A stretch of 64,000 bases of DNA from an uncultured Gammaproteobacteria bacterium (GCA_964396715.1 CAYNFQ010000001.1:117873-181872), one strand, 5' to 3'. Shown: positions 4,031 to 61,847, numbered from the stretch's first letter. Translations and numbers: made by a program. The notes: generated from the letters alone by a model not told the origin.

Positions 4031-5359
4031 CTAGACGATTATTTCTCTAGAGATAATTTCTGCTATGGCCCCCCCCATTTCTATTGCATAGTTTGTTCCT
4101 CTGTCCCAGGGATAAACCATATCCAAATTAGCCAGATAAACATTTTTTAAAGGAGTTTTAAATGTAGGGATTAAATCTTTGTAGTTTGTGGTGACAATGG
4201 GTTGGGCAAAGGGGCCGACAAATTTGTGATAAGTGATAAGTGATAAGTGATAAGTTGGGTTGATTTTTTTAAGATATGGATCAAATTTTTTCAAAATTGA
4301 CTTGGCGGTCATTTTTAAAAACGGATGATCAGATGGTAAGTAATTACCAATATAAATAATGTGCTTCCCCCCATAATGTTTGGGATCCATGAAGTTGGTG
4401 TGTTCTGCAATTATCAAAAATGGGAAGCTGCTGTCAGTGATATTTAACCAGTAAGTTTTTTCCATAAACGGTTTTTTGAGAACCAGAATTAAAACTAAAG
4501 CATGAAGATGGGGGATGGAGCATATTTTTTTAACATATGTTTTTGGAAGATTTGTTGTTATTTTAGCAAAAATGGGGGATGGCAGTGTAATTATTGCTTT
4601 ATCAAAAATGAGTTTTTTAGCACCAGTTTTTATCCTAACATTTTTTCCCGCGGATAACGAGGTAACTGATGTGCCAGTCAAAATTTCTCCTCCCATTTTT
4701 TTAATTTCCTCCCCAAGTCTGTCGGCAAAAGCTTTAAACCCTCCTTCCGGATAAGCAAGCCTTGGAGTTCTTTTTTTAATTCTTGCCCAAAACCAGGATA
4801 ATGCAATATTATCTTTGTAAGAGCCGAACTTTCCGGAAAATAACGGCTCCCACAGCATTTTAGCAGCCCTCTCCCCCATAAAACGCTTAATCCAGGATAA
4901 AGCAAATTTATTTTCAAATTTATCGTAACGGTTGATTAATTTTAGGTACAAAAGGGAAATTCCAACACGCAAACGGTCAATAATTGGGAGCGGAATAAAT
5001 GTTAAAAGAGATTTAGGGCTATCAAAAGGGAATCGCTTACCGTTTACTAAAACATCTGTAGACGGTCTTTTAATTATAACTTTATGTCTCAATTCCCTTG
5101 TTAGATTAAAAGCTGCCTGATCATTAGTAAACCAGTGATGATAGGCTTTCTCCAGTGTCCACCGCCATTTGGGATTTGAAAATCCAATAGCCAGACCGCC
5201 AAGTTCGGATTCTTTTTCAAAAATAGTCACCTTGTAGCCTTTTTTTAGCAAGGTGTATGCGGCTGATAAACCTGTGAAGCCTGCCCCAAGAATTGCAACT
5301 TTATCGGCCCTTTTCATTTTGTTTTCCATAAATTTACTCTTCCGTCCAATCCTGACCAC
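4031..5359 (-). CDS. FAD/NAD(P)-binding oxidoreductase (amine-oxidase/protoporphyrinogen-oxidase/UGM-like superfamily)
   Basis: N-terminal Rossmann dinucleotide motif VAILGAGFTGLSAAYTL...EKESELGGL; 442 aa. Confidence 0.65.
   Translation of the reverse strand: MVRIGRKSKFMENKMKRADKVAILGAGFTGLSAAYTLLKKGYKVTIFEKESELGGLAIGFSNPKWRWTLEKAYHHWFTNDQAAFNLTRELRHKVIIKRPSTDVLVNGKRFPFDSPKSLLTFIPLPIIDRLRVGISLLYLKLINRYDKFENKFALSWIKRFMGERAAKMLWEPLFSGKFGSYKDNIALSWFWARIKKRTPRLAYPEGGFKAFADRLGEEIKKMGGEILTGTSVTSLSAGKNVRIKTGAKKLIFDKAIITLPSPIFAKITTNLPKTYVKKICSIPHLHALVLILVLKKPFMEKTYWLNITDSSFPFLIIAEHTNFMDPKHYGGKHIIYIGNYLPSDHPFLKMTAKSILKKFDPYLKKINPTYHLSLITYHKFVGPFAQPIVTTNYKDLIPTFKTPLKNVYLANLDMVYPWDRGTNYAIEMGGAIAEIISREIIV
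4226..4253. repeat. Perfect heptanucleotide tandem repeat (GTGATAA)x4 inside the oxidoreductase CDS (encodes TYHLSLITYH on minus strand)
   Basis: Read directly: gtgataagtgataagtgataagtgataag. Confidence 0.9.
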
Positions 5360-12185: not shown

Positions 12186-13037
12186 ATGATTTGTTTTATG
12201 TTATTGGTCTCCATTATTATAACCACCAAAAACGAGCAGAAGAATATTGGCAGACTGCTTGATTCAATAAACGCCCAGAGCTATAAAAATATTGAAACTA
12301 TTTTGGTTGATAATAACTCTTCTGATCAGACTAAAGATGTTGCGAAAAAACTGGGAGCTAAAGTTTACAATTTTGGTCCGGAAAGATCTGCCCAGAGAAA
12401 TTTTGGCGCTAAAGTAGCCAGGGGAAAATACTTATTATTTGTTGATGCGGATATGGAACTTTCAAAAGATGTAGTTTTACAATGTGTCAAATTAATGGAG
12501 AAAAATGAGGAAACAGTAGCTTTAGCCATACCGGAAAATCCAATCGCCAGCACTTTTTGGGATAAAGTGAAAGCACATGAAAGATTAATCTATAACAGGG
12601 AAGGCGATCCGGTAACCGATGCCGCAAGATTTTTTAGAAAAGAAATTTTTATGAGGGTCGGCGGATATGATGAAACAATAACCGGTCCTGAAGATTGGGA
12701 TTTACCGGAAACAATAAAAGAGGCGGGTTTTAAAATAGGCAGGATTTCAGGGTATATCAATCATAGGGAGAGGGTACTTTCCCCTCTAACTCTGGCAAGG
12801 AAGAAATTCTACTACGGCTTGGGCGCTCACAGATATTTGGAAAAGCACAAAATTCCTATAGTTGGCCCTAAAACCGTCTATTTTTTAAGGCCGATATTCT
12901 ATAAAAACTGGCTTAAGCTTATCAAAAATCCTTTTTTAACTTTGGCTATGATATTCATGATGACGGCAGAGCTTTTAGGCGGAGGATTGGGCTATTTAAT
13001 TGGGCTATATAATAGTAGAAGGATTAAAAGATTATGA
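12186..13037 (+). CDS. GT2 glycosyltransferase
   Basis: VSIIITTKNEQKNI...VDNNSSDQT, DAD motif; start moved to Met24 to avoid overlap with convergent cupin gene. Confidence 0.75.
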   Translation: MICFMLLVSIIITTKNEQKNIGRLLDSINAQSYKNIETILVDNNSSDQTKDVAKKLGAKVYNFGPERSAQRNFGAKVARGKYLLFVDADMELSKDVVLQCVKLMEKNEETVALAIPENPIASTFWDKVKAHERLIYNREGDPVTDAARFFRKEIFMRVGGYDETITGPEDWDLPETIKEAGFKIGRISGYINHRERVLSPLTLARKKFYYGLGAHRYLEKHKIPIVGPKTVYFLRPIFYKNWLKLIKNPFLTLAMIFMMTAELLGGGLGYLIGLYNSRRIKRL

Positions 13038-14158
13038 AGGTGTTACAAATTTCAACCCATTTCCTGCCAAATCTGGGGGGTATCGAGACCCATCTTGGGG
13101 ATTTAACAAAGGCTTTGGTAAAAAGACATTGGCAGGTTTTTGTATTGGCATACAGGCCGCTTACCACAAAAACCGACTGGAAAATATATGAGATGGAGGG
13201 AAATTTAAAAGTTTTAAGAATTCCCTGGATACCGGGTTTTTTCTATAAACTTGTTCAAAGTCCTGTTTTGGAATTTTTATACCTTGTTCCGGGTCTTTTC
13301 CTTGCCACCCCAATACTGCTGCTGCTATACAATCCCGAAGTGATAAACGGACACGGATTGGTCGCCGGATTTGTTTCAGTTTTTTGGGGAAGGCTGTTTG
13401 GTAAAAAAGTTGTTGTTTCCACCCACAGTATTTACCATTTTCCAAAAAGAGGTTTATACAAACAATTTGTCCGTTGGATTTTCTCTAAATCAGATTTTGT
13501 TTTGGGACTTTCCAAGCAGGCTGTTTCGGAGATTAAATCATTGAATCCTGAGAATTCCAGGGTTGACAACTTTACTTATTGGGTAGATTTAAATAAGTTT
13601 AAAGTGCAAAGTGCAAAGTTCAAAGTGAAAAAACAGTTGGGGTGGGATGATAAATTTGTGATTTTGTTTGTGGGAAGACTGGTTTTAGAAAAAGGCATAA
13701 AGGAGCTTTTGCAGGCAGCAGGTATTTGGAATAAAAATATCCGGCTGGCAATTATCGGAAGCGGGCCTCTTGAAGGATACCTAAGGAGTCGATTTTCTCG
13801 CGCAAACATTCACTTTGCAGGAAAAATTGAGCAGGATAAATTGCCTGACTTTTATAACGCGGCGGATTTGTTAGTCGTACCTTCAATTCATGAAGAAGGA
13901 TTTGGCAGAGTGATTTTGGAATCGCTGTCTTGCGGATTGCCGGTTGTAGGAGCAAACCGCGGCGCTATTCCCGAAGCCATGGATGAAACCGTAGGAAAAC
14001 TTATTGACATTACTGTGCAAAACATTAAAAATGCCGTAGAGTATTTTTATTTGCATCAAGATGAATTAAGGAAATTAGCCAAAAACTGCCGCAACTTTGC
14101 AGAAAGGAGATATTCGGAAAAAAATGTTGAAAAAATCATCAAAGCCTACCTTGGATAA
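13034..14158 (+). CDS. GT4 (GT-B) glycosyltransferase
   Basis: C-terminal EEGFGRVILESLSCGLPVV signature; ATGA overlap with upstream gene. Confidence 0.8.
   Translation: MKVLQISTHFLPNLGGIETHLGDLTKALVKRHWQVFVLAYRPLTTKTDWKIYEMEGNLKVLRIPWIPGFFYKLVQSPVLEFLYLVPGLFLATPILLLLYNPEVINGHGLVAGFVSVFWGRLFGKKVVVSTHSIYHFPKRGLYKQFVRWIFSKSDFVLGLSKQAVSEIKSLNPENSRVDNFTYWVDLNKFKVQSAKFKVKKQLGWDDKFVILFVGRLVLEKGIKELLQAAGIWNKNIRLAIIGSGPLEGYLRSRFSRANIHFAGKIEQDKLPDFYNAADLLVVPSIHEEGFGRVILESLSCGLPVVGANRGAIPEAMDETVGKLIDITVQNIKNAVEYFYLHQDELRKLAKNCRNFAERRYSEKNVEKIIKAYLG
13593..13627. repeat. Imperfect heptanucleotide tandem repeat (CAAAGTK)x5 inside GT4 CDS, encoding NKFKVQSAKFKVK
   Basis: Read directly: taagttt aaagtg caaagtg caaagtt caaagtg; same unit as the tract at 48356-48390. 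Confidence 0.85.
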
Positions 14159-31491: not shown

Positions 31492-32166
31492 AATGATGCT
31501 TTAAGGAGATTATAGCCTTCCGCATATTTCACGCCTATTTCAGTCCCCCTTATTCCTGCCATCCTTTCTAAATTTTGAGGGCTTCTGGGAAAAGGGTCTT
31601 CCCGTAGCTGAGTTTCGTGGCATTTTAAAAGTTCTATTTTTTCTTTAAAAATTTCAGAAATATCAAAATAAAAATTAGGTTTGAATCCATCCCGGTTAGT
31701 CCAGCTATATGGCTCTTCAGCTTCCAGTATGATTTTTGGCTGATGGCGCAAATTTTTAGGAATTGGTCTAAGAGCCGTGATAGATGCGGAAAAAAGCGCT
31801 CTATGGTCCTGATCAAAGCTGTCCCTAAATGGTATGCAAATTATATCAGGTTCAAACGCTTCAATTTTATCTTCTATATTTTCAATAAGTCTCTTTTGCG
31901 GCACACTGTCAAGTTTCATAAATTCCTCACCTTGAAACATTATTGAGTATTCAAAACCACCATACTTTGAAGCTTTTTTTGCCTCATCAAGACGACTTGC
32001 AGAATTTGTTTTTCCGGTAACCAACTGCCTTGATGAGCCAATAGATCCATACATCACGAATACTCTTGCACCAGTTTTTTTTTGCAAGCATGATCAACCC
32101 ACCACAGCAAATGGCTTCATCATCGGGATGAGGTGCAATAATCAAAATTTTTTTACCCTTAAGCAT
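31488..32166 (-). CDS. PIG-L/LmbE-family N-acetylglucosaminyl deacetylase, interrupted by a frameshift in an A9 homopolymer (plus-strand T9 at 32075-32083)
   Basis: Upstream frame encodes MLKGKKILIIAPHPDDEAICCGGLIMLAKK (PIG-L motif), downstream frame continues TGARVFVMYGS...; removing one A restores one ORF. Confidence 0.6.
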
Positions 32167-32226
32167 ATAAGTTCCAAAATTGCATTATGTAAGCAGAACA
32201 ACTGTATTATACAATATATAGATCTT

Positions 32227-34377
32227 ATGATGGATATTAAAAAAAATTTGAGTCCACTAATTATTTTAATAGTTTGTTTGATCCTTATTTTTGTATGGTT
32301 TAACAAGGGTTTGCTTTTTGCAGGTGGAGAGGGGGGAATCCCTTTTTATAACCTTTCAAAAACTGCAGAGCGCATTTCTTATCTTTGGATAGATGAAGAG
32401 GCTGGTTATCCGGGTGTAGGCAATCTAACAGAAGTCCCTTACTATGCATTGCTTAAGATCCCTTTGCAGTTTGGTGTGCCTTCAAATCTGGTTCAGGCTT
32501 TTCATTTTTTCTTGGTTATGTTTACCGGCGTGGTTTCTGTATATTTTCTGATAAAAATAACCATAGAGGAAGAACTTAAAAAAAATCTTAATTTTTGGGG
32601 CGCAAAATATATATCTTTGATTGGCGCTATCTTCTATTTATTAAATCCTTTTTCCATGTCGCAGGTTTTTGGCAGGAGTTTAAATATTCAATATCTTTCT
32701 TTTGTATTGCTGCCTTTATTTCTCCTGCTGTATATCAGGGGACTTAAAACAAGAAATCTAATATATGGCTTTTTAAGCTTGATACCTTCTTTTATCTTCT
32801 CAGGAGCGTATGGCAGTTTTGGATATATACCAGCACTTTGGTTTCTGGTATTTCTTTATACTGTATTTTACCTTTGGAAAAATAGAAGTAAAAGAGAAAT
32901 TATTTTTGGTATTTTTTTCTTATCTTTTGTTTTTCTCAGCTGGATCATGGTAAATCTTTTTTGGATTATTCCGGTTTTTAAATTAGGGGGACAACAACTG
33001 GCAGCTTCCCTTAATGCGACAGAGGAAAATCTTGGGTCTTTAAGAGGGGTGAGTAAGCATTTTTCTCTGCCTATTCTTATCAGGCTTCTTCATACAGGAT
33101 ATTTCTATGAGGATTTATACGGGATTGTTTATTCAAGTTTATTCTTTGTGATTATAAGTTGGATAATTCCTGTAGTGTCATTTTTTTCATTAACCCTTTT
33201 TAAGAAAGTAACCAGTTTTAAATTCTACCTGACTTTATTTGTAATTTCCCTTTTTATATCTTTAGGTTCTAATTTCCCAACAGGCTGGTTATTTGAATTC
33301 ATATTTGAAGCTGTACCTGCATTTCAAATGTACAGGAATCCTTATGAAAAATTTGGGCTGATTTTTCTTTTAGCCTATACCCCATTTTTTGCATTGGGGA
33401 CTCTGGTTTTGTCAGAAAAATTAGCTGCCTTTTTTAAACATCAACGTTTAAAGTATTTTTGGGTGGTGCTCATTCTTTTTCTGGTGAGTGGCATTTTTGT
33501 TTGGCCAATGTGGAAGGGAATTTTTGCAGGAGGTTACAGGATCAATACCTGGATAAACGTACCTGATTATTATAAAAATGCTAACGATTGGTTAAATCAG
33601 CAGGATGGAGATTTTAGATTGTTGCATCTTCCTTTAATTCCAGGAGATGGCATAAGGTATAAGTGGGATCATCCATATCAAGGCATTGAACCGTCTGAAT
33701 TTTTATTTGATAGAGCATCAATAGCTCAAAATATTCCTTTTAACAAACAATATTACAATGTTTTACTTCAGCGCATTGGGATTTTCCAGCCAAATATTTT
33801 TGGTTCTGATCCTGATTTGACAAATTCGGAATTTAAATCCGAAAAATTAGGGGAAGAGTTAGCGAAATTAAATATTCGATATATAGTTTTACATAATGAT
33901 ATTGATGTTAGTTTCGGTGGTTTCAAAACACCACAAGAAACTGCAGTCTATTTGGCCAAAGATAAAAAAATAATCAAAGTTAAAAGTTTCGGTCAGCTGG
34001 ATATATATGAGGTGGAAATTCCCCAAAATATTCAAATTATTTATTCTCCATCAACTACTTTAATCTATGAAAAAATTAACCCCGCTTTTTATAAAGTAAA
34101 AGTTACTGATGAAGTTAAACCTTTTAATTTGAATTTTCTTATGTCTTACAATTCAAATTGGCACGCTGTTATTGATGGTGAAGTAATACAGGATCATGTA
34201 AAATTATTTTCGTATGGAAATTCCTGGGAAGTTAACAAAACCGGCAGTTTTGAAATAGATTTAGTTTATAAACCGCAGGAACTGGTTAAACAGGGACAAA
34301 TAATTTCAACGTTTTCGTTTATAGTAATATCTCTGCTGATGGTCTGTTACCAAATTATATGGAAAAAAAGAATTTAA
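32227..34377 (+). CDS. Large polytopic membrane protein, family B (N-terminal multi-TM GT-C-like domain + C-terminal extracytoplasmic beta-rich domain)
   Basis: Shares WFxxGLxFxGGxxGxxFxN, RNPYEKFG, LLHLPLIPGDGIRYKWDHPYQGIEPSEF, IRYIVLHND motifs with the giants at 38636, 42468 and 46347. Confidence 0.65.
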   Translation: MMDIKKNLSPLIILIVCLILIFVWFNKGLLFAGGEGGIPFYNLSKTAERISYLWIDEEAGYPGVGNLTEVPYYALLKIPLQFGVPSNLVQAFHFFLVMFTGVVSVYFLIKITIEEELKKNLNFWGAKYISLIGAIFYLLNPFSMSQVFGRSLNIQYLSFVLLPLFLLLYIRGLKTRNLIYGFLSLIPSFIFSGAYGSFGYIPALWFLVFLYTVFYLWKNRSKREIIFGIFFLSFVFLSWIMVNLFWIIPVFKLGGQQLAASLNATEENLGSLRGVSKHFSLPILIRLLHTGYFYEDLYGIVYSSLFFVIISWIIPVVSFFSLTLFKKVTSFKFYLTLFVISLFISLGSNFPTGWLFEFIFEAVPAFQMYRNPYEKFGLIFLLAYTPFFALGTLVLSEKLAAFFKHQRLKYFWVVLILFLVSGIFVWPMWKGIFAGGYRINTWINVPDYYKNANDWLNQQDGDFRLLHLPLIPGDGIRYKWDHPYQGIEPSEFLFDRASIAQNIPFNKQYYNVLLQRIGIFQPNIFGSDPDLTNSEFKSEKLGEELAKLNIRYIVLHNDIDVSFGGFKTPQETAVYLAKDKKIIKVKSFGQLDIYEVEIPQNIQIIYSPSTTLIYEKINPAFYKVKVTDEVKPFNLNFLMSYNSNWHAVIDGEVIQDHVKLFSYGNSWEVNKTGSFEIDLVYKPQELVKQGQIISTFSFIVISLLMVCYQIIWKKRI

Positions 34378-35528
34378 AAATTTATATTTTTGCCCTAGCT
34401 GCAACAGGTTCGGGAATTTCTGGTTCTGACAGGATTTTTATTGAATTTACTAGAAAGTGGAGTAAAGAAGTTCCAGTGATAGTCTATCTATGGAGGGAGG
34501 GTTATGAGATGTGCCAAAGGCAAAATCTGGGAATATCAAATATTGAATATCGAATATCGAATATGAAATCATGGAGACCTTTTAGATTTCTAATAAATTA
34601 CATAGTTAGAATTATAGAGGGGATAAAACTAGGGACTATCTTAAAATTAAAAAATACTCCCCAAATCATTATTTATTCAGCTTCGGAATTTTGGATGGAT
34701 TCATTGCTGGCATTTTTATTAAAATTGCGCTTTCCCAAGGTTAAATGGGCTGCAGCATGGTATCAAACTGCACCTAGTCCGCTAAAAGGATTTTCCGGGT
34801 CTTTAATTTATTGGTTAGTTCAACTTCCAATAAAACCTCTGATTGATAGATTTGCTAACTTTGTTTTAGTAAATAATGATATGGAGAAGAAGGTTTTCAA
34901 GAGACTGAACAGAAAAAATAAAGCAATAGTTGTTTTGGGAGCAATAGATCTAGAGGGAATAAAAAAGTGGCAAAAGATTATCGGTAAAAAGAAGAAAATT
35001 TATGACGGAGTATTTCAAGGCAGGTTTCATCCGCAAAAAGGAGTTTTGGAGCTTATTGGTATATGGAAGAAGGTGGTTGATAAGAAACCGGATGCAAAAT
35101 TGGTAATGATAGGGGATGGGCCACTGATGGAAAATGTCAAATTACAAATTACAAATTACAAATTAAACAAAAACATCATTCTCAAAGGGTATATGTTTGA
35201 TGGGGAAGAGAAATATAAGATATTTGCCCAAAGCAAAATTGTGGTGCATCCTGCCATCTTTGATTCCGGCGGTATGGCATCGGCCGAGGCAATGGCTTTT
35301 GGATTGCCTTGCGTGGGTTTTAATTTAAAATCATACATTTACTATTACCCTTCAGGAATGGAAAAGGTTGATGAAGGAAATACCGAAGCTTTTGCCAAAA
35401 AAATACTTGAGCTTCTAAGTAATAAAACTTTATATGAAAAAGTATCCAAAGAAACATTGTATCTAATTAATTATAAATGGTCATGGGAATATAGGGCTCG
35501 TCAAATACTACAAGCAGTGTTAGAATAA
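34359..35528 (+). CDS. GT4 (GT-B) glycosyltransferase
   Basis: C-terminal GGMASAEAMAFGLPCVGF GT4 signature. Confidence 0.75.
   Translation: MEKKNLKIYIFALAATGSGISGSDRIFIEFTRKWSKEVPVIVYLWREGYEMCQRQNLGISNIEYRISNMKSWRPFRFLINYIVRIIEGIKLGTILKLKNTPQIIIYSASEFWMDSLLAFLLKLRFPKVKWAAAWYQTAPSPLKGFSGSLIYWLVQLPIKPLIDRFANFVLVNNDMEKKVFKRLNRKNKAIVVLGAIDLEGIKKWQKIIGKKKKIYDGVFQGRFHPQKGVLELIGIWKKVVDKKPDAKLVMIGDGPLMENVKLQITNYKLNKNIILKGYMFDGEEKYKIFAQSKIVVHPAIFDSGGMASAEAMAFGLPCVGFNLKSYIYYYPSGMEKVDEGNTEAFAKKILELLSNKTLYEKVSKETLYLINYKWSWEYRARQILQAVLE
34531..34572. repeat. Imperfect heptanucleotide tandem repeat (GAATATC)x6 within GT4 CDS (encodes GISNIEYRISNMKS)
   Basis: gaatatc aaatatt gaatatc gaatatc gaatatg aaatcat. 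Confidence 0.85.
35138..35165. repeat. Perfect heptanucleotide tandem repeat (CAAATTA)x4 within the same GT4 CDS (encodes KLQITNYKL)
   Basis: caaattacaaattacaaattacaaatta. Confidence 0.9.
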
Positions 35529-35535
35529 TTTCTTA

Positions 35536-36447
35536 ATGAAAAATTATCCCGGCGTTTCGGCAGTAATCCCGAGTTTTAATGATAAGAAAAAAGTTTTCCG
35601 GCTTTTGGATTCTTTAAAAAAATCAAAATATAAAAAATTGGAAATTATTGTTGTTATAAACGGGTTGATAGATACCCTTTTGGAGGGAAAGATTAAATAC
35701 AAATGGGTCCGCTGGATTGATGCGGGAAGGGAAAATATTGGCCAGACCGGATGCTACAATTTAGGTTTTGCGCATGCTAATAGAAAAAATCACATACTTT
35801 ATGTTGATTCCGATGTGGTTGTAGATAAGGAGATGGTTTCTAAATTGGTAGAAAGAGCCCAGTCAGATAAAAAAATTGGTATAGTTACCCCCATGATTTT
35901 ATATTTATCCGATAAAGATTGGGTTAATCAGGCAGGGGCAAGTGTGAATTTGATAACAGGAAAAGTAACAGTGGGCTGGGGTCCAAAAAAGGATTTTTTA
36001 ATAGCAAAAGAAGTGCAAAATTCTGGTACCCTGATGCTTTTTAAAAGACAGGTGGTTGATAAAATCGGAGGAGTTGATGATTGGTTCCTTTGTTATTTTG
36101 ACCCGGACTATTGTCTGAGAGCCAAAAAGGCAGGGTTTATAACCTGGTATGAGCCGAAAGCAATCTGTTACCATGATCAGTCTAAAAACCCAAATGTCTG
36201 GAGACCAAGAGTATTAACAAGGGCATATCTTTTGGGAAGAAACAGGGTTTTATTTATGAGAAGGCATGGAAATATAGTTACTTTCTCCTTTTTTTTGCCC
36301 TTAATTTTAGGTTTTTATCTTTTTGAATGCATTAAATTTGGACAAATTATTAAATTCTTTAAACTTTTGTGGGGGAGTATTGTAGGGTATTTTTATCCAT
36401 TAAGATCAGGTAATTTTATCCCGCTGCCAAAAGTAAACCGCACATGA
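35536..36447 (+). CDS. GT2 glycosyltransferase
   Basis: VSAVIPSFNDKKKV...EIIVVING, DSD motif. Confidence 0.7.
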   Translation: MKNYPGVSAVIPSFNDKKKVFRLLDSLKKSKYKKLEIIVVINGLIDTLLEGKIKYKWVRWIDAGRENIGQTGCYNLGFAHANRKNHILYVDSDVVVDKEMVSKLVERAQSDKKIGIVTPMILYLSDKDWVNQAGASVNLITGKVTVGWGPKKDFLIAKEVQNSGTLMLFKRQVVDKIGGVDDWFLCYFDPDYCLRAKKAGFITWYEPKAICYHDQSKNPNVWRPRVLTRAYLLGRNRVLFMRRHGNIVTFSFFLPLILGFYLFECIKFGQIIKFFKLLWGSIVGYFYPLRSGNFIPLPKVNRT

Positions 36448-38000
36448 AAAACAAATTAGCTTCGGTTGTAATAGTCACACATAATAGGAAGAAAGACTTG
36501 CTGGAATGTATAGATTCTTATTTTAAGTCAAGTTATCACCCGATTGAAGTAATTGTTGTAGATAATGCCTCAAATCCTGCCGTAAAAACATATCTTCCAA
36601 AAAAATATCCTAAGGTAAGAGTAATAACCAATAATAGAAACCTGGGGGCAGCGGAAGGAAGAAATATAGGTTTGGATACCTCAGTGGGGGAGTATATCCT
36701 GTTTTCGGATGATGATGCTTTTTGCGATAAAGATATGGTTAAGTATTTGGTTGAGGCATTCAAAAAAAAGCGTAAGGCAGGGATAATCCAGCCTTTGGTT
36801 TATGACAAACAAAAGAAAAATTATTTACAGGGGGCAGGTCATGATATTGATCTAACAACTGGAAGAATTAAGGCCTGGGGAGTCAGAGAAGAAGATAAGG
36901 GCCAATATGAAGGTTTAAGAAAAGTGCCAATGGTAGGATGTGTCTGGATGGTTAGAAAAGAAGTGTTTGAACAGGTGGGTAAATTTGATGCGGAATACTT
37001 TATTCCCTATGAAGACAGCGATTTTTGTTTGAGAGCATCAAATGCCGGTTTTGAAATTTATTGTTACTCAATGGCTAAATCTTGGCATTTGGGTCTTAAA
37101 ACAACTCATGTACATCCCCTGGTAGAGTGGTTAGGAATAACAACTCCGGAAAGATCGTATAGAGTTGCCAGAAACAAAATAATTTTTATGGCAAAAAACT
37201 CAAAATTTCCCAACAATTTGTTATTTTTCGGGCTATTTATGCCTGCATATTTGATTTTGCACTCATTAGTAATAATGTTGAGCGGTAGGTGGGATTTGTT
37301 AACAAGATACTGGCAGGGTGTTATCTCCGGGATATGGTATGGAATAAGGAGATTATTTAATAAAGCGACCATCATTATACTTTCCTTCACTGATCCGCTC
37401 CCATGGGTTTTGGATAAAAAGACAACAAGCATTTTAGACGTAGGGTGTGGAGAGGGTTTACCTATGAAGTTAATTAAAATAAGACTTAAGATAGAAAATT
37501 CAACCGGAGTAGATTTATTCAAGCCCTATATAGAAAAGGGAAGACAGTTTCAAATACATGATAATTACAAAATTCAGGATATAAGAAAGATAAATTTTAA
37601 AAATAGGTCTTATGATACGGTTATAGCGTCTCATGTTTTGGAACATCTTCCCAAAGATGATGCATTGAACCTTTTGCAAAAAATAGAGAAAATTGCCTCA
37701 AGACAAATAATTATAGCTTGCCCGATTGGACAGATGTATCACCCTGAAACAGACGGAAATAAACTGCAATTACACCTTTCGGCTTTTGAACCGGAAGAAT
37801 TTGAAAAAAGGGGTTATAAAATTATTAGGTATGGGTTCAGATGGTTGTTGGGAGAAGGAGGGATAATGGAATCATTTTCTAATATTTTCATCACGGAGAT
37901 TTGTTTTACTATTCACTTGCTATTTACGCCTATTTTTTATATATTTCCCAATATTGGAAGCTACACATTTGTGGCCTACAAAAAATGTAATGAAGCATAA
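36444..38000 (+). CDS. Fusion protein: N-terminal GT2 glycosyltransferase + hydrophobic linker + C-terminal class I SAM methyltransferase
   Basis: ASVVIVTHNRKKDLL...VIVVDNAS, DDD; then ILDVGCGEGLP...SHVLEHLPK MTase motifs; 518 aa. Confidence 0.7.
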   Translation: MKNKLASVVIVTHNRKKDLLECIDSYFKSSYHPIEVIVVDNASNPAVKTYLPKKYPKVRVITNNRNLGAAEGRNIGLDTSVGEYILFSDDDAFCDKDMVKYLVEAFKKKRKAGIIQPLVYDKQKKNYLQGAGHDIDLTTGRIKAWGVREEDKGQYEGLRKVPMVGCVWMVRKEVFEQVGKFDAEYFIPYEDSDFCLRASNAGFEIYCYSMAKSWHLGLKTTHVHPLVEWLGITTPERSYRVARNKIIFMAKNSKFPNNLLFFGLFMPAYLILHSLVIMLSGRWDLLTRYWQGVISGIWYGIRRLFNKATIIILSFTDPLPWVLDKKTTSILDVGCGEGLPMKLIKIRLKIENSTGVDLFKPYIEKGRQFQIHDNYKIQDIRKINFKNRSYDTVIASHVLEHLPKDDALNLLQKIEKIASRQIIIACPIGQMYHPETDGNKLQLHLSAFEPEEFEKRGYKIIRYGFRWLLGEGGIMESFSNIFITEICFTIHLLFTPIFYIFPNIGSYTFVAYKKCNEA

Positions 38001-46264: not shown

Positions 46265-46350
46265 AATACCTATTCTCACTTATTTTATTTTTTCTGATAG
46301 TAGCATCGGTATTTTTTTATATTTTGGGGGTTAGATTTAAGAAAAAATGA
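46261..46350 (+). CDS. Micro-ORF, 29-aa single-TM peptide MKYLFSLILFFLIVASVFFYILGVRFKKK
   Basis: ATG overlaps upstream TGA (46261-46264), its TGA overlaps ATG of giant B3 (46347-46350); below ORF-track length cutoff. Confidence 0.35.
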   Translation: MKYLFSLILFFLIVASVFFYILGVRFKKK

Positions 46351-49031
46351 AGAAAAGAATTGCCTTAATGTTTTTTCTGATCTTACCCTTTTTTTGGATT
46401 TTTTGGTTACCTGGCCCTAGGGTGGCAACAGATTATCACCTGACCACAAAGGAAACCCAGCTGGATAACCTGTTTCCCTGGATCTGGAGAGAAACCAGTG
46501 TGGCAGATGGTTTGGGGGAATATACTGCTATTACTCTTTGGTCACAGCCGCTTCATTCATTTTTCGCCAGTCTATATCAGATTAATTTACCTTTTTCATT
46601 TTTGACAAAGCTGCTTGTCGGATTAATTATCCTGCTTAGTATTATTTCCATGCTCAAGCTTTTAGATTATTTGAAAATTAAAAGTCCGTATCAAGAAGTT
46701 GGTGTAATTTTTTACATATTAAATACATTTTTTTTACTTCTCCTTGACGGTGGACAGTTGGCCTTGACACTTGCTTACGCAGTTTTTCCTCTCTCGGTTT
46801 ATTGTTTTCTGCTACTCATGCAAACAGCAAATTTGAAAAGAAGACTTTTATTTGCTTTCAGCGTCCTGGCAATTTCCATATTTGATATCAGGATTGTTTA
46901 TTTGCTGTTTATGGTCTGTGCCATTTTTGTCCTGTTTAAATTTTTTTTATCACCTTCAAAAAAAGAAGTTGTTTTAGTTTTTAAAGAGGTTTTACTATCA
47001 GCAATATTTACCATACTGATAATTTTTCCCTTTCATGCTTACTGGATACTACCTGCTTTAGTTGTTAAGACACCACAGTTGCCGCAGACTTATGAGAGAG
47101 TTTCCCAGATAGATTTTTTAAGCTTTTCCACACTGCTTCATTCCCTAATTTTGAATCAGCCCCACTGGTATAAAAATATCTTTGGTAAAATATCAGAGGT
47201 AAGTTTTGAGTTTTTGCTGATTCCCGCAACAGCTTTTATCTCTTTAGCCCTAGTTAGGAGAAATACCCAGGTTGCTTTCTGGTCACTTATTGCAATCTTG
47301 GGAATTTTTCTCTCCAAGGGTTCAAATCCACCCCTGCCTCAAATTTATTCTTATCTTTTTGCCAGCATTCCCGGATTTTCAATTTTCCGTGATCCTGCCA
47401 AATTTTATTTTCTAATTTGTATCGCGTACACAATATTAATAGGATTTTCTCTTCAGGCGATGGGTAAGTTAGCAAAAATTATCCCATTTGTTTTTCTTTT
47501 GTATATAGTCTGGCTTGCCAGGCCGGTATATCTTGGACAAATGAGCGGACTATTTTCCTTCCCATCTTTTGAAAAAGAATTTAATTTACTATCAGAGGTA
47601 ATAAAAGAAGACAAACAATTCTCCCGGGTTTTCTGGATTCCCAATTCAGCACCTTTAGGTTATGTTGGTCCCAATCACCCGCAAGTTGAAGCTTCCAGGT
47701 TATCTAAAAAAAGGCCTTTTGCCGCAGCAACAGTAGGAACTTATGAGACATTTAATTTCTTAAGAGAGGCACCTTTCATGGGAGAAATTTTTGATGTGTC
47801 GGGGATTGGATATATTGCATATCCCTATATAGACAAACAAAGGGAGGAGGCGGATTTTGATAAAGAAAAATATTACTACACATTTTTAAATCAACTGTCC
47901 AAACTTCCCTGGGTTTCCAAAGTTGAATATTCGGGTATGCCGCTGCTTAAAGTCAAAAATCACCAGGATAAATTTTTTGTTACGGGAAATACCTGGTGGA
48001 TAATAGGGGATGATAGTTTATATAAAGAGTCAACCAAAAGTGCTACGCTTAAATTATCCAAAAACAGTTTGATTTTTACCGAAGAGCATGCGGGTTTGGG
48101 GAAAAGACTGGATGAGGTTTCGGATGCCAAAATTATACTGAATAAAAAAAGCAACATAGACCTTGCAGCAAGTTTTATTGATGCCTCAAAACTTTTTTTT
48201 CCGGCAAAAAGCCTTAATTTCAGTCCCGATGAATCAGGTTGGTGGAAAAGGGAGGCGGTGGATTTGGTTTGGTGGAGAGATTTTTTACAAAACAAATACG
48301 GGATAGATAATAAGGATTTTGATTTAGGAGGAGGATGGGCGGTGGGGGAAGGGTATTCAAAGTTCAAAGTTCAAAGTTCAAAGTTCAAAAAGGACAATAT
48401 TTTGCTGGCAAGAGTAATGGAAAGTTCCAGAAGTGGGAATTTGAAATTTTATCAAGACAATCAACTAATCGGGGAAGTGGGAACTAAAATTAACGGAGAT
48501 GCCAATGTTAGATGGTTTGAAGTAGGGGAGTTAAGTGGAAATGGTAGCGGGATTGCTATAGAGTCCACAGGAGATATTAATGTGGTTAATACATTGGCAG
48601 TTTTGGACAAAAACGACTGGGATAGTTTAAAGGATAAAGCCGATAAGCTGCAGGGGAGAGTGGTAAGTTTTGATGACAAGAGTATACAAAATGTAACCGG
48701 CTCCATGGTTTCTTACCGGAGGATAAACCCCACTAAATATATTGTAAATATAGACGGTTTAACAAAGCCGTCATTGTTAGTATTTTCCCAAAATTATGAT
48801 AGTTTATGGAAGATGAGTGGTCAGACTCCCCTGCCACGTTCAGCTAACATGAACGTGGCTCTGCCGGTGTATAGTTTGCTGAATGGATTTAGAGTGGAAC
48901 AGGACGGAGAGTATATTGTTGAATTTGAGGCGCAAAAGTATGTTTATTTAGGGTTAGCAATCTCCATAATGACTTTGCTTACAATAACTTTTCTACTCAT
49001 CTTAGGCACCAGGAGATCATCTAGGCTATAA
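46347..49031 (+). CDS. Giant (894 aa) polytopic membrane protein, divergent family B paralog
   Basis: N-terminal multi-TM, FRDPAKFYFL (aligns to RNPFEKIG), C-terminal LLNGF...DGEYIVEFEAQKYV like DGEYEFSINFDAQK of B1. Confidence 0.65.
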   Translation: MKKRIALMFFLILPFFWIFWLPGPRVATDYHLTTKETQLDNLFPWIWRETSVADGLGEYTAITLWSQPLHSFFASLYQINLPFSFLTKLLVGLIILLSIISMLKLLDYLKIKSPYQEVGVIFYILNTFFLLLLDGGQLALTLAYAVFPLSVYCFLLLMQTANLKRRLLFAFSVLAISIFDIRIVYLLFMVCAIFVLFKFFLSPSKKEVVLVFKEVLLSAIFTILIIFPFHAYWILPALVVKTPQLPQTYERVSQIDFLSFSTLLHSLILNQPHWYKNIFGKISEVSFEFLLIPATAFISLALVRRNTQVAFWSLIAILGIFLSKGSNPPLPQIYSYLFASIPGFSIFRDPAKFYFLICIAYTILIGFSLQAMGKLAKIIPFVFLLYIVWLARPVYLGQMSGLFSFPSFEKEFNLLSEVIKEDKQFSRVFWIPNSAPLGYVGPNHPQVEASRLSKKRPFAAATVGTYETFNFLREAPFMGEIFDVSGIGYIAYPYIDKQREEADFDKEKYYYTFLNQLSKLPWVSKVEYSGMPLLKVKNHQDKFFVTGNTWWIIGDDSLYKESTKSATLKLSKNSLIFTEEHAGLGKRLDEVSDAKIILNKKSNIDLAASFIDASKLFFPAKSLNFSPDESGWWKREAVDLVWWRDFLQNKYGIDNKDFDLGGGWAVGEGYSKFKVQSSKFKKDNILLARVMESSRSGNLKFYQDNQLIGEVGTKINGDANVRWFEVGELSGNGSGIAIESTGDINVVNTLAVLDKNDWDSLKDKADKLQGRVVSFDDKSIQNVTGSMVSYRRINPTKYIVNIDGLTKPSLLVFSQNYDSLWKMSGQTPLPRSANMNVALPVYSLLNGFRVEQDGEYIVEFEAQKYVYLGLAISIMTLLTITFLLILGTRRSSRL
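48356..48390. repeat. Heptanucleotide tandem repeat (TTCAAAG)x4 + 1 imperfect inside giant B3 CDS (encodes SKFKVQSSKFKK)
   Basis: ttcaaagttcaaagttcaaagttcaaagttcaaaa; same CAAAGTT unit as 13593-13627. Confidence 0.9.
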
Positions 49032-60591: not shown

Positions 60592-61209
60592 ATGTATAAT
60601 CTTTACATGAGTATTTTTACAGACAGGATGGGAAGGGGTTTAACGGCCGCGCAGGCTTTGGGGAAAATCCTGGGAAGGATTTATAATTGGGTTTTGGATA
60701 TTGAACTGCTTGTGGTGACCTGGGCAGGTTTGGTTCCCCTGCATTCATTTCGCCTTTTTATTTACTTTTTGGCTGGTATGAAGATAGGCAAAGATTCAAG
60801 GATTCATATTGGCGCCCGCTTTTTTTATCCGGCAAATATTACGATTGGAAATGGGACTATTATTGGAGATAACGCATTTTTGGATGGGAGGGATAAACTT
60901 ACTATTGGTGATCATGTGGATATTGCCTCGCAAGTTTTGATCTATAACAGTGAGCATGATATCAATTCAGATGACTTTCACGCGGTAAATGGGATTGTGG
61001 AGATTGGCGATTATGTTTTTATCGGTCCCAGGGTAATCATACTGCCGGGAGTAAAGATAGGCAGGGGAGCAGTTGTTGCGGCAGGAGCTGTGGTGACAAA
61101 AGATGTAGAAAATTTCGCCATAGTCGGAGGAGTGCCGGCAGAAGTGATAGGCGAACGAAAGATTCACAACTTACATTATCAGCTTGGGAGGGCACGCTTA
61201 TTCCAATGA
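60592..61209 (+). CDS. Hexapeptide-repeat (LbH) O-acetyltransferase, WcaF/WbbJ-like
   Basis: [59 protein letters not shown] hexapeptide repeats. Confidence 0.8.
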
Positions 61210-61847
61210 AGAAATTTCCAATCTCTCGACTTCGCTCGAGACAGGTTTTCAATCTTGCCTGTCGGCAGACAGGTTTTCAATCTTGCCTGTCGGCAGACAG
61301 GTTTTCAATTTTTTTACTGTTCTCTTTTTTACTGTTTATTTATATGGTTTGGCCTTCACCTTCTGCCATAGCGGATTTTAAGTCTCTGCCAAATTCTCAA
61401 AAATCGCGCCTGGAGGGTGACACAATACAAATCCCCAATGTTGCCGCTTATTTTTCCAATCACTACCGTGAATTTGTGGTGCCTTTTTATGCAAAAAATT
61501 ACCGGTTAAAGGTGAATTTGCCAATTCCCCCGCTCAGATTAAATCACCCGCCCGAATTTTCCTGGATTACAATAAAAAAACATACGGATTCCACCTATCT
61601 TGAGGAGTTGGTTTATCCTTTAAGAGATTCGTTGTTTGTAAACGGATATGAGCCATTTTATCCTGATGGGTCACCTAAATTTTGGGGGTCAACAAAATTT
61701 GAGGTTGACGGAAATCTTTGGGAGACCAAAACTACCTTGAGGTTTTACCACTCGAGTATTTGGATCAGACTGCTTGTTTGGTTTGGAATAACTTTATCCA
61801 TTTTTCTGCTATATAAAATGACTAAAAAAATTATATTTAATAAATGA
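61206..61847 (+). CDS. Hypothetical bitopic membrane protein (N- and C-terminal TM segments, central extracytoplasmic domain); 5' coding region contains the 28-nt tandem repeat
   Basis: ATGA overlap with acetyltransferase stop; residues 12-36 encoded by the repeats in shifting frames; no family recognised. Confidence 0.45.
61240..61312. repeat. Tandem direct repeat, 28-nt unit gacaggttttcaatcttgcctgtcggca x2.6; adjacent units form hairpin CCTGTC-ggca-GACAGG
   Basis: Read directly; two perfect copies (61240-61267, 61268-61295) plus 17-nt partial third. Confidence 0.9.

Follow-up and report, generated by a model that had tools for sequence, protein, structure and literature searches.

Can a bacterial glycosyltransferase gene that carries two different 7-nt tandem repeats inside its coding sequence be switched off and on by slippage at those repeats? 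The question is raised by a 64,000-nt stretch of DNA, hereafter the window, from an organism titled "uncultured Gammaproteobacteria bacterium" (GCA_964396715.1, CAYNFQ010000001.1:117873-181872), in which a GT4 glycosyltransferase gene, GT4-A, holds a heptanucleotide tract in each of its halves. An initial annotation of the window had described the pair as independent simple sequence repeats (SSRs) that would make expression of the transferase highly mutable. Both tracts are genuine 7-nt SSRs in one intact GT4 gene, and a change of one unit in either truncates the protein. We favour, with moderate confidence, the reading that they are low-copy heptanucleotide contingency loci, acting by frameshift as on/off switches in a GT4 gene that is conserved in the Microgenomates; the switching itself we infer from comparison of sequences. 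The gene and its tracts are:

34359..35528, plus strand: GT4-A, host of both tracts, a retaining GT-B-fold glycosyltransferase of 389 aa (open reading frame (ORF) call, Pfam, AlphaFold2 (AF2) model, Foldseek)
34531..34564, plus strand: site-1 tract, a decayed heptanucleotide repeat over residues 58-69 (Tandem Repeats Finder (TRF), codon view)
35131..35165, plus strand: site-2 tract, one degenerate unit, AAAATGT (35131-35137), and then four perfect copies of CAAATTA (35138-35165), over residues 258-269 (TRF)

Two heptanucleotide tracts in one GT4 gene

GT4-A is a GT4 glycosyltransferase by family match, fold, and sequence motif. The Pfam family Glycos_transf_1 matches residues 202-365 with 94.8 bits, against a cut-off of 26.4 (E=5.5e-27). 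An AF2 model built from 34 homologs (pLDDT 90, pTM 0.85) has the two-Rossmann-domain GT-B fold, and the top Foldseek matches of the model in the PDB are MshA, HepE, BshA, and PimB' (E ~1e-17, TM ~0.7). Residues D302 and E310 of the C-terminal domain, in a D-x7-E arrangement, are invariant in the alignment of the 34 homologs, and we take this pair to be the EX7E-type motif of GT4. GT4-A has its GT-B fold, and a C-terminal domain for binding the nucleotide sugar, in common with the structurally characterised GT4 enzymes MshA, BshA, PimB', HepE, and TarM, at sequence identities of just 12-19%. The plus-strand ORF is intact over the whole length initially annotated, and its product is a 100% match to a protein of a Candidatus Daviesbacteria metagenome-assembled genome (MAG; GCA_016192255.1, contig JACPUL010000012.1).

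The site-1 tract reads GAATATC AAATATT GAATATC GAATATC GAATATG, which TRF scores as 4.9 copies with 85% match (34531-34564); its perfect core is 20 nt long, or 2.9 copies (34545-34564). The initial annotation had given it as about six copies of GAATATC extending to 34572, so the repeat is there and its size was overstated. The description of the second tract was exact: the perfect (CAAATTA)x4 is scored by TRF as 4.0 copies with 100% match and encodes residues 260-269, (V)KLQITNYKL, including the peptide KLQITNYKL that had been named. Both are in-ORF tandem repeats with a unit length that is not a multiple of 3, as in contingency loci. Frame analysis indicates that a one-unit change at site 1 truncates the protein at residue 64-66, and that a one-unit change at site 2 brings a stop at codon 266 or 282.

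Neither chance nor codon usage accounts for the tracts. In 20,000 codon shuffles of GT4-A, a period-7 run of at least 20 nt was found with P = 2e-4 and a run of 28 nt was never reached; in 300 triplet shuffles of the window there were no runs of at least 21 nt, versus three observed. Under the codon usage of the family, the probability that the (CAAATTA)4 peptide would be encoded by a perfect repeat is 0.002. Among perfect repeats of at least three copies with periods of 5-15, only period 7 is present in the whole window. Periodicity of the protein was also ruled out as the cause: a 7-nt period joins different amino acids in each frame, and the peptide follows the unit.

In the AF2 model, site 1 covers a loop (residues 55-61), an edge strand (62-67), and a second loop (68-76) of the N-terminal domain, with the lowest pLDDT of the model (70-85), and many indels are found there across the GT4-A family. 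Site 2, in the nucleotide-binding domain, covers the C-terminal two-thirds of a helix (257-266) and the turn after it, with pLDDT 98, and the conserved residues V260, K261, I264, and L269 alternate with free positions.

The proposed mechanism would begin with these two tracts, each of which sits in frame at a position where the structure of the enzyme is permissive. Slipped-strand mispairing at replication would gain or lose one 7-nt unit, and the slip would shift the frame and truncate the enzyme after residue ~65 (site 1) or ~266-282 (site 2). A second slip would restore the reading frame, and in a minority of cells one step of envelope-glycan synthesis would in this way be turned off and on. 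Site 2, with four perfect copies, would be the only live tract of this genome, site 1 having decayed to 2.9. GT4-A would switch at a useful rate and reversibly, and selection may favour this, for instance to evade phage or to attach to a host.

Position and turnover of the tracts across the GT4-A family

Orthologs were drawn from 50 genome and 80 metagenome loci of Daviesbacteria, Woesebacteria, Amesbacteria, and other Microgenomates, giving 116 unique GT4-A orthologs that are 35-74% identical to the window protein (L numbers denote loci or contigs, P numbers proteins). Across this family the heptamer tracts of GT4-A are confined to the same two sites. Perfect heptamer runs of at least three copies lay inside the GT4-A ortholog in 11 of 12 cases in 894 kb of genome loci, and in 10 of 10 cases in 438 kb of metagenome loci. 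A TRF survey (score at least 40) of ~1.4 Mb around 128 orthologous loci placed 74 of 80 period-7 arrays inside the GT4-A ortholog, a gene that makes up ~11% of that DNA; the six arrays outside it are three in the window, two in one L026 gene, and one in L062. Period-7 runs of at least three copies are present in 16 of the 116 unique orthologs, and none of the 116 has a repeat of at least three copies with a period of 5, 6, or 8-12.

Tracts of at least 20 nt were found at site 1 in 12 of the 116 orthologs and at site 2 in 11, and the lag-7 autocorrelation, averaged over all 116, reaches 0.50 at site 2, over a background of 0.29, and 0.39 at site 1, compared with 0.27-0.30 for the controls and the whole gene. 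The recurrence of the same two sites across the family, with a period-7 signal above the controls, shows that both are ancient; most lineages today retain decayed versions. The presence of two independent SSRs in a single gene had been called unusual; the SSRs are real, but the pair of sites is an inherited feature of the family, with tracts of at least 20 nt at both in five of the 116. A third tract site, rare in the family, is found in the linker between the two domains (L006, P0120) and is equivalent to the main site of GT4-B, a second GT4 family treated below.

Perfect site-1 tracts in the orthologs consist of 3-4.7 copies of (TCAAATA), (TCAAGTA), (TCAGGTA), or (GATTTAC), and the family consensus peptide of the site, ISNxKYQISNM, is the translation of (TCAAATA)n. 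At site 2, five units of the type AAAGTNN stand in register in nearly all close orthologs. In several orthologs (L012, L071/L069, L066, L050, and L011) the site-1 tract region is interrupted midway by non-repeat inserts of 7-19 aa, and because of these insertions site 1 is to be regarded as a general indel hotspot.

Copies within one tract share the unit of their lineage, and the unit changes between lineages. The site-1 unit is TCAAATA in L033, L054, L043, L053, and L086, TCAAGTA in L010, TCAGGTA in L006, GATTTAC in L004 and L155, and GTATTAA/GTATTAT in L157, and the window has a decayed CGAATAT form. At site 2, the unit is CAAATTA in the window, L053, L004, L016, and L102, AAAGTGC in L055, L060, and L157, AGAATTA in L054 and L086, and AAAGGGT in L033. 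Turnover is evident even between close relatives, as the proteins of L004, L033, L054, and L055 are 81-92% identical and their units differ at one or both sites. The tracts thus evolve in concert, with unit differences between relatives and homogenisation within each tract, a pattern that is best explained by repeated slippage. Homogenisation at a net length that stays in frame is most simply explained by the loss of one unit and the regain of one, a route that would pass through out-of-frame states.

The site-1 peptide follows the DNA unit, from ISNIKYQ to SSIKYQV to SGIRYQV. Encoded residues change just as the DNA unit dictates, and therefore repeat dynamics, rather than selection on the protein, drive the change. 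Recurrence of the peptides KLQITNYKL and ISNIKYQISN in homologs could, at face value, be taken as protein-level conservation, which the initial annotation had named as evidence against mutability; the units of close relatives are, however, quite different. What is conserved here is the repeat in the DNA, and the recurrence does not refute mutability.

The same turnover could be read as in-frame diversification of two exposed peptide segments, by unit replacement, three-unit changes, or cassette exchange, that alters interactions with acceptors or partner proteins. Close relatives do have very different encoded peptides between conserved flanks (12 of 15 site-2 residues differ between L033 and L054), indels are frequent at site 1, where insertions measure 7-19 aa, and all alleles are in frame. 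We nevertheless consider this explanation improbable: the invariant length of site 2 means that no three-unit change was ever fixed there, the variable residues lie on the solvent-facing side of a helix far from the D-x7-E motif with no evident functional reason to vary, and the perfection of the DNA repeat is left unexplained. The L033 and L054 proteins are 92% identical overall, and their 12 differing residues fall at gene nt ~770-815. The L054 version of site 2 is that of the far more distant L086, and looks like a mosaic import of a short, tract-bearing segment.

Conservation of the repeat at the DNA level is illustrated by (CAAATTA)4, the nine codons of which are identical in five orthologs that are 55-74% identical in amino acid sequence, save for one AAG codon in L016; elsewhere in those orthologs, just 36-53% of identical residues share a codon. 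Conservation of a DNA repeat beyond the need of the protein could also reflect a signal in the nucleic acid itself, whether a protein-binding array, an RNA element, or a recoding site (programmed frameshift or transcriptional slippage). This is a very improbable explanation. The unit sequence is not conserved among relatives, unlike a binding site or RNA motif; no Rfam family matches 33500-36500 at E<=1; both alternative frames stop within 0-20 codons, so that there is no alternative product; and a 7-bp period is at odds with the helical repeat that a binding array should show. Long tracts consist only of units without a stop codon in any of the three frames, and stop-containing units stay below three copies. 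The CAAA core of most units was considered as a common motif and set aside, being largely the result of TAA/TGA avoidance in an AT-rich repeat that is read in three frames. Stop avoidance accounts for this core but not for the identity of the units, as there are 222 possible AT-rich units without a stop.

A one-unit deletion allele in a second GT4 family, and the search for off alleles

GT4-B is a separate, paralogous GT4 family that likewise has site-conserved heptamer tracts. Its window member carries one of three further heptamer tracts in the window, and a GT4-B ortholog outside the window provides a natural one-unit allele:

4226..4255, minus strand: perfect (TTATCAC)x4.3 in the coding strand of a FAD/amine-oxidase-like ORF (4031-5359), residues 369-378 (TRF)
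13601..13631, plus strand: imperfect (AAAGTGC)x4.4 in the second GT4 gene, GT4-B (13034-14158), residues 190-200 (TRF, 87% match)
48356..48389, plus strand: perfect (TTCAAAG)x4.9 in an 894-aa ORF without a family match in Pfam (46347-49031), residues 670-681 (TRF)
L133:1500-1640 versus L134:686-840 and L135:777-931: one-unit deletion allele, (AAGTTCA)3 versus 4, in a GT4-B ortholog

The three extra window tracts lie in intact ORFs, each of which is truncated by a one-unit change. Homologs of the 894-aa ORF are variable at the position of the (TTCAAAG) tract, and the (TTATCAC) repeat is absent from three homologs of the FAD/amine-oxidase-like ORF. GT4-B orthologs have perfect tracts with other units at the position of window 13601-13631. 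When proteins were scanned for peptides that can be encoded solely by a perfect heptamer repeat of at least 24 nt, such peptides were found in 10 of 120 GT4-B homologs, at residues ~187-199 and ~247-258, and in 16 of 120 GT4-A homologs. In L026, the GT4-B ortholog (ORF 1684-2889) has (AAAGCTC)4.9 in the interdomain linker (2325-2358) and (AAGTATC)4.4 just past the GxGP motif (2508-2538), and therefore the two-tract habit is not unique to GT4-A.

Identical units were also seen at non-homologous sites and genes in several loci, including window 13601 and 48356 and the proteins P0124, P0139, P0207, and P0238. The units AAATATC and AAGTATC occur both at GT4-A site 1 and at the post-GxGP site of GT4-B, and the GT4-B linker has AAAGTGC in common with GT4-A sites 1 and 2 and AAAGTTC in common with the 894-aa ORF.

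A natural slippage allele was found in the GT4-B family. The P0180 90%-identity cluster, which is 62% identical to the window GT4-B, has six members of 383 aa and one, P0250, of 207 aa. The P0250 contig, L133, is 98.2% identical to L134 and 97.3% identical to L135 over ~1.45-1.56 kb, and the single indel between them is one AAGTTCA unit, present in three copies in L133 instead of four. The minus-one-unit allele splits the GT4-B ortholog into ORFs of 207 and 159 aa. The tract that lost the unit has 4.7 copies, and a tract sized like window tract 2 has lost exactly one unit in nature. Both copy-number polymorphism and an off allele are therefore seen in this family among near-identical strains (97-98% identity). 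Truncated members were screened in 20 further protein clusters, and P0250 remained the only tract frameshift. The other truncated proteins considered as tract frameshifts (P0253, P0255, P0256, P0269, P0273, P0289, P0294, P0306, and P0308) proved to be contig-end or unrelated truncations.

For GT4-A itself, several observations weigh against switching. No frameshifted allele was found in ~140 loci, ~23 of which have tracts; this differs from neuO, a phase-variable O-acetyltransferase gene that is off in 65.6% of genomes (PMC13001214). The sole other assembly of this organism that spans the tracts is identical to the window: the MAG locus L001 and the Logan contig L002 (SRR12113426) are both 100% identical to it, and the contig of L137 (SRR12113429) ends 136 nt before tract 2. 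Copy number in the family is ~3-4.7, with a maximum of 4.7, at the low end for hypermutability, and ~85% of orthologs have only decayed tracts. No ortholog varies in length at site 2, where the sequence is partly constrained by the protein, with its fixed length and well-ordered helix. Some of the sharing of tracts between lineages, as in the L033/L054/L086 mosaic, may have come about by recombination rather than by slippage in situ. The description of GT4-A expression as highly mutable is accordingly not borne out, with just four copies in tract 2, 2.9 perfect copies in tract 1, and no off allele in those loci. An apparent frameshift just past site 2 in L044, a public MAG, was rejected as a run of N (L044:10860-10869) that mimics a frameshift in tblastn.

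Among loci sampled via the downstream GT2 gene, no off allele was found, just contig ends at the tracts. Of the nine distinct positions at which contigs break inside GT4-A orthologs, four are at the tract sites, which make up ~8% of the gene: L138:1-27, L155:1-30, and L159:1-33 at site 1, and L139:1-36 at site 2, all in Logan contigs and within the tract or a few bases off. This suggests within-sample heterogeneity, with branching of the assembly graph from coexisting alleles.

The absence of off alleles would fit a neutral relic, an ancient microsatellite that arose once at sequence-tolerant sites and is occasionally regenerated by slippage or recombination, with no adaptive part in switching and with frameshifts being deleterious and purged. 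Such a history would agree with the decayed state of the tracts in most orthologs, with the in-frame state of every GT4-A allele seen, with a copy number never above 4.7, and with the resemblance of the consensus ISNxKYQISNM to a (TCAAATA)n fossil. We judge this alternative unlikely. If one-unit indels were purged, only decay by point mutation would be left, yet whole tracts have been homogenised to new units in several lineages, and perfect DNA repeats last where synonymous sites are otherwise saturated. A second GT4 family and other genes show the habit independently, and in the GT4-B family the L133 off allele survives in a natural population.

Known phase-variable loci and the surroundings of GT4-A

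Pathogens and commensals adapted to a host are the organisms for which phase variation by repeat slippage is considered typical. For the candidate phyla radiation (CPR), Patescibacteria, or Microgenomates, full-text searches of the literature library covered here turned up no account of SSR phase variation.

A close parallel by description is pglE of Neisseria, a glycosyltransferase gene that is phase-varied by a heptanucleotide SSR (PMC7157529). In N. meningitidis and N. gonorrhoeae, pglE encodes a surface-glycan (protein glycosylation) glycosyltransferase with an in-ORF 7-nt SSR and a one-unit frameshift, as in GT4-A (PMC7157529). It sits among other phase-variable glycan genes, and likewise several genes in the cluster of GT4-A hold heptamer tracts. 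However, pglE belongs to a host-adapted pathogen, whereas GT4-A belongs to a groundwater CPR bacterium; switching of pglE is documented in isolates, whereas no on/off polymorphism was seen in GT4-A. Unlike pglE, GT4-A has two tract sites, with just ~4 copies and with positions that are conserved to ~55% identity.

The neuO gene of the CUS-3 prophage in E. coli K1 has (AAGACTC)n with 3-53 copies, and all three frames of the repeat give a heptapeptide repeat (PMC13001214). Like GT4-A, it has a coding heptamer whose copy number sets full-length translation. It encodes an enzyme of a different family, and has a 5' tract with a wide copy range in which repeat length also tunes activity. The tracts of GT4-A lie instead inside folded domains (codons 58-69 and 260-269) and have ~4 copies, every allele seen is on, and their internal position, narrow copy number, and invariant site-2 length set them apart from 5' heptanucleotide variable-number tandem repeats of the neuO type.

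In H. influenzae, heptanucleotide tracts range from 1 to 38 copies and are proposed switches at several Haemophilus loci (PMC2651432). The tetranucleotide and homopolymer contingency loci in glycosyltransferase genes for lipooligosaccharide, lipopolysaccharide, and capsule of Haemophilus, Neisseria, and Campylobacter have a shared logic, in which slippage leads to frameshift and to stochastic variation of a surface glycan (PMC2651432). Those loci have another unit length and usually much longer tracts near the 5' end, and they are typically strain-variable, whereas the GT4-A tracts are position-conserved across a phylum-level group.

Tentatively, and with less than an even chance in our estimate, we propose that Microgenomates keep ancient, position-conserved heptanucleotide contingency tracts in GT4 and other envelope-glycan genes, at two to three fixed sites per GT4 fold, and that these are kept by second-order selection to ~55% identity. 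They would form a heritable, stochastic surface-glycan switchboard for ultra-small, probably host-attached cells, serving phage evasion or variation of attachment. Units of 7 nt may be used since loops of that size escape mismatch repair. If the tracts switch, uncultured groundwater ultra-small bacteria would share a bet-hedging logic on envelope glycans, with an unusual signature: short tracts, fixed in position within folded domains, at two to three sites in each gene, and with phylum-level conservation. Surface variation in unculturable organisms would then have a concrete read-level test, and annotators who meet a split GT4 gene in a MAG of this kind may be looking at an allele in the off state rather than at an error. 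The protein scan for heptamer-only peptides may suit large surveys.

GT4-A lies in a long envelope-glycan gene cluster in which the order GT-C/GT4/GT2 is conserved. This cluster and the three further tracts in genes of the window give supporting context for the contingency-locus reading. The immediate neighbours are:

32128..34377, plus strand: GT-C (AftD-like) membrane glycosyltransferase gene, the upstream partner (Pfam GT-C_AftD)
35536..36447, plus strand: GT2 gene, the downstream partner (Pfam Glycos_transf_2)

The 3' end of the GT-C gene overlaps the start of GT4-A by 19 nt, and a GT-C gene is found upstream of the GT4-A ortholog in 43 of 47 genome loci. The GT2 gene begins 8 nt past the GT4-A stop, and GT2 is downstream of the ortholog in 27 of 47 genome loci, with a median identity of 66%. 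The downstream GT2 gene is a possible target of polarity upon a frameshift in GT4-A.

Contigs with a Microgenomates-type cluster (L003, L006, L008, L014, and many more) are titled "uncultured Gammaproteobacteria bacterium" in the TPA "binchicken" assemblies, and this title, on such contigs, is probably a placeholder or a wrong taxon label. Elsewhere in the window, a perfect 2.5x repeat of the 28-bp unit AGACAGGTTTTCAATCTTGCCTGTCGGC occupies 61239-61309, where the ORFs 60592-61209 and 61206-61847 meet, and each unit contains a hairpin, GACAGG...CCTGTC.

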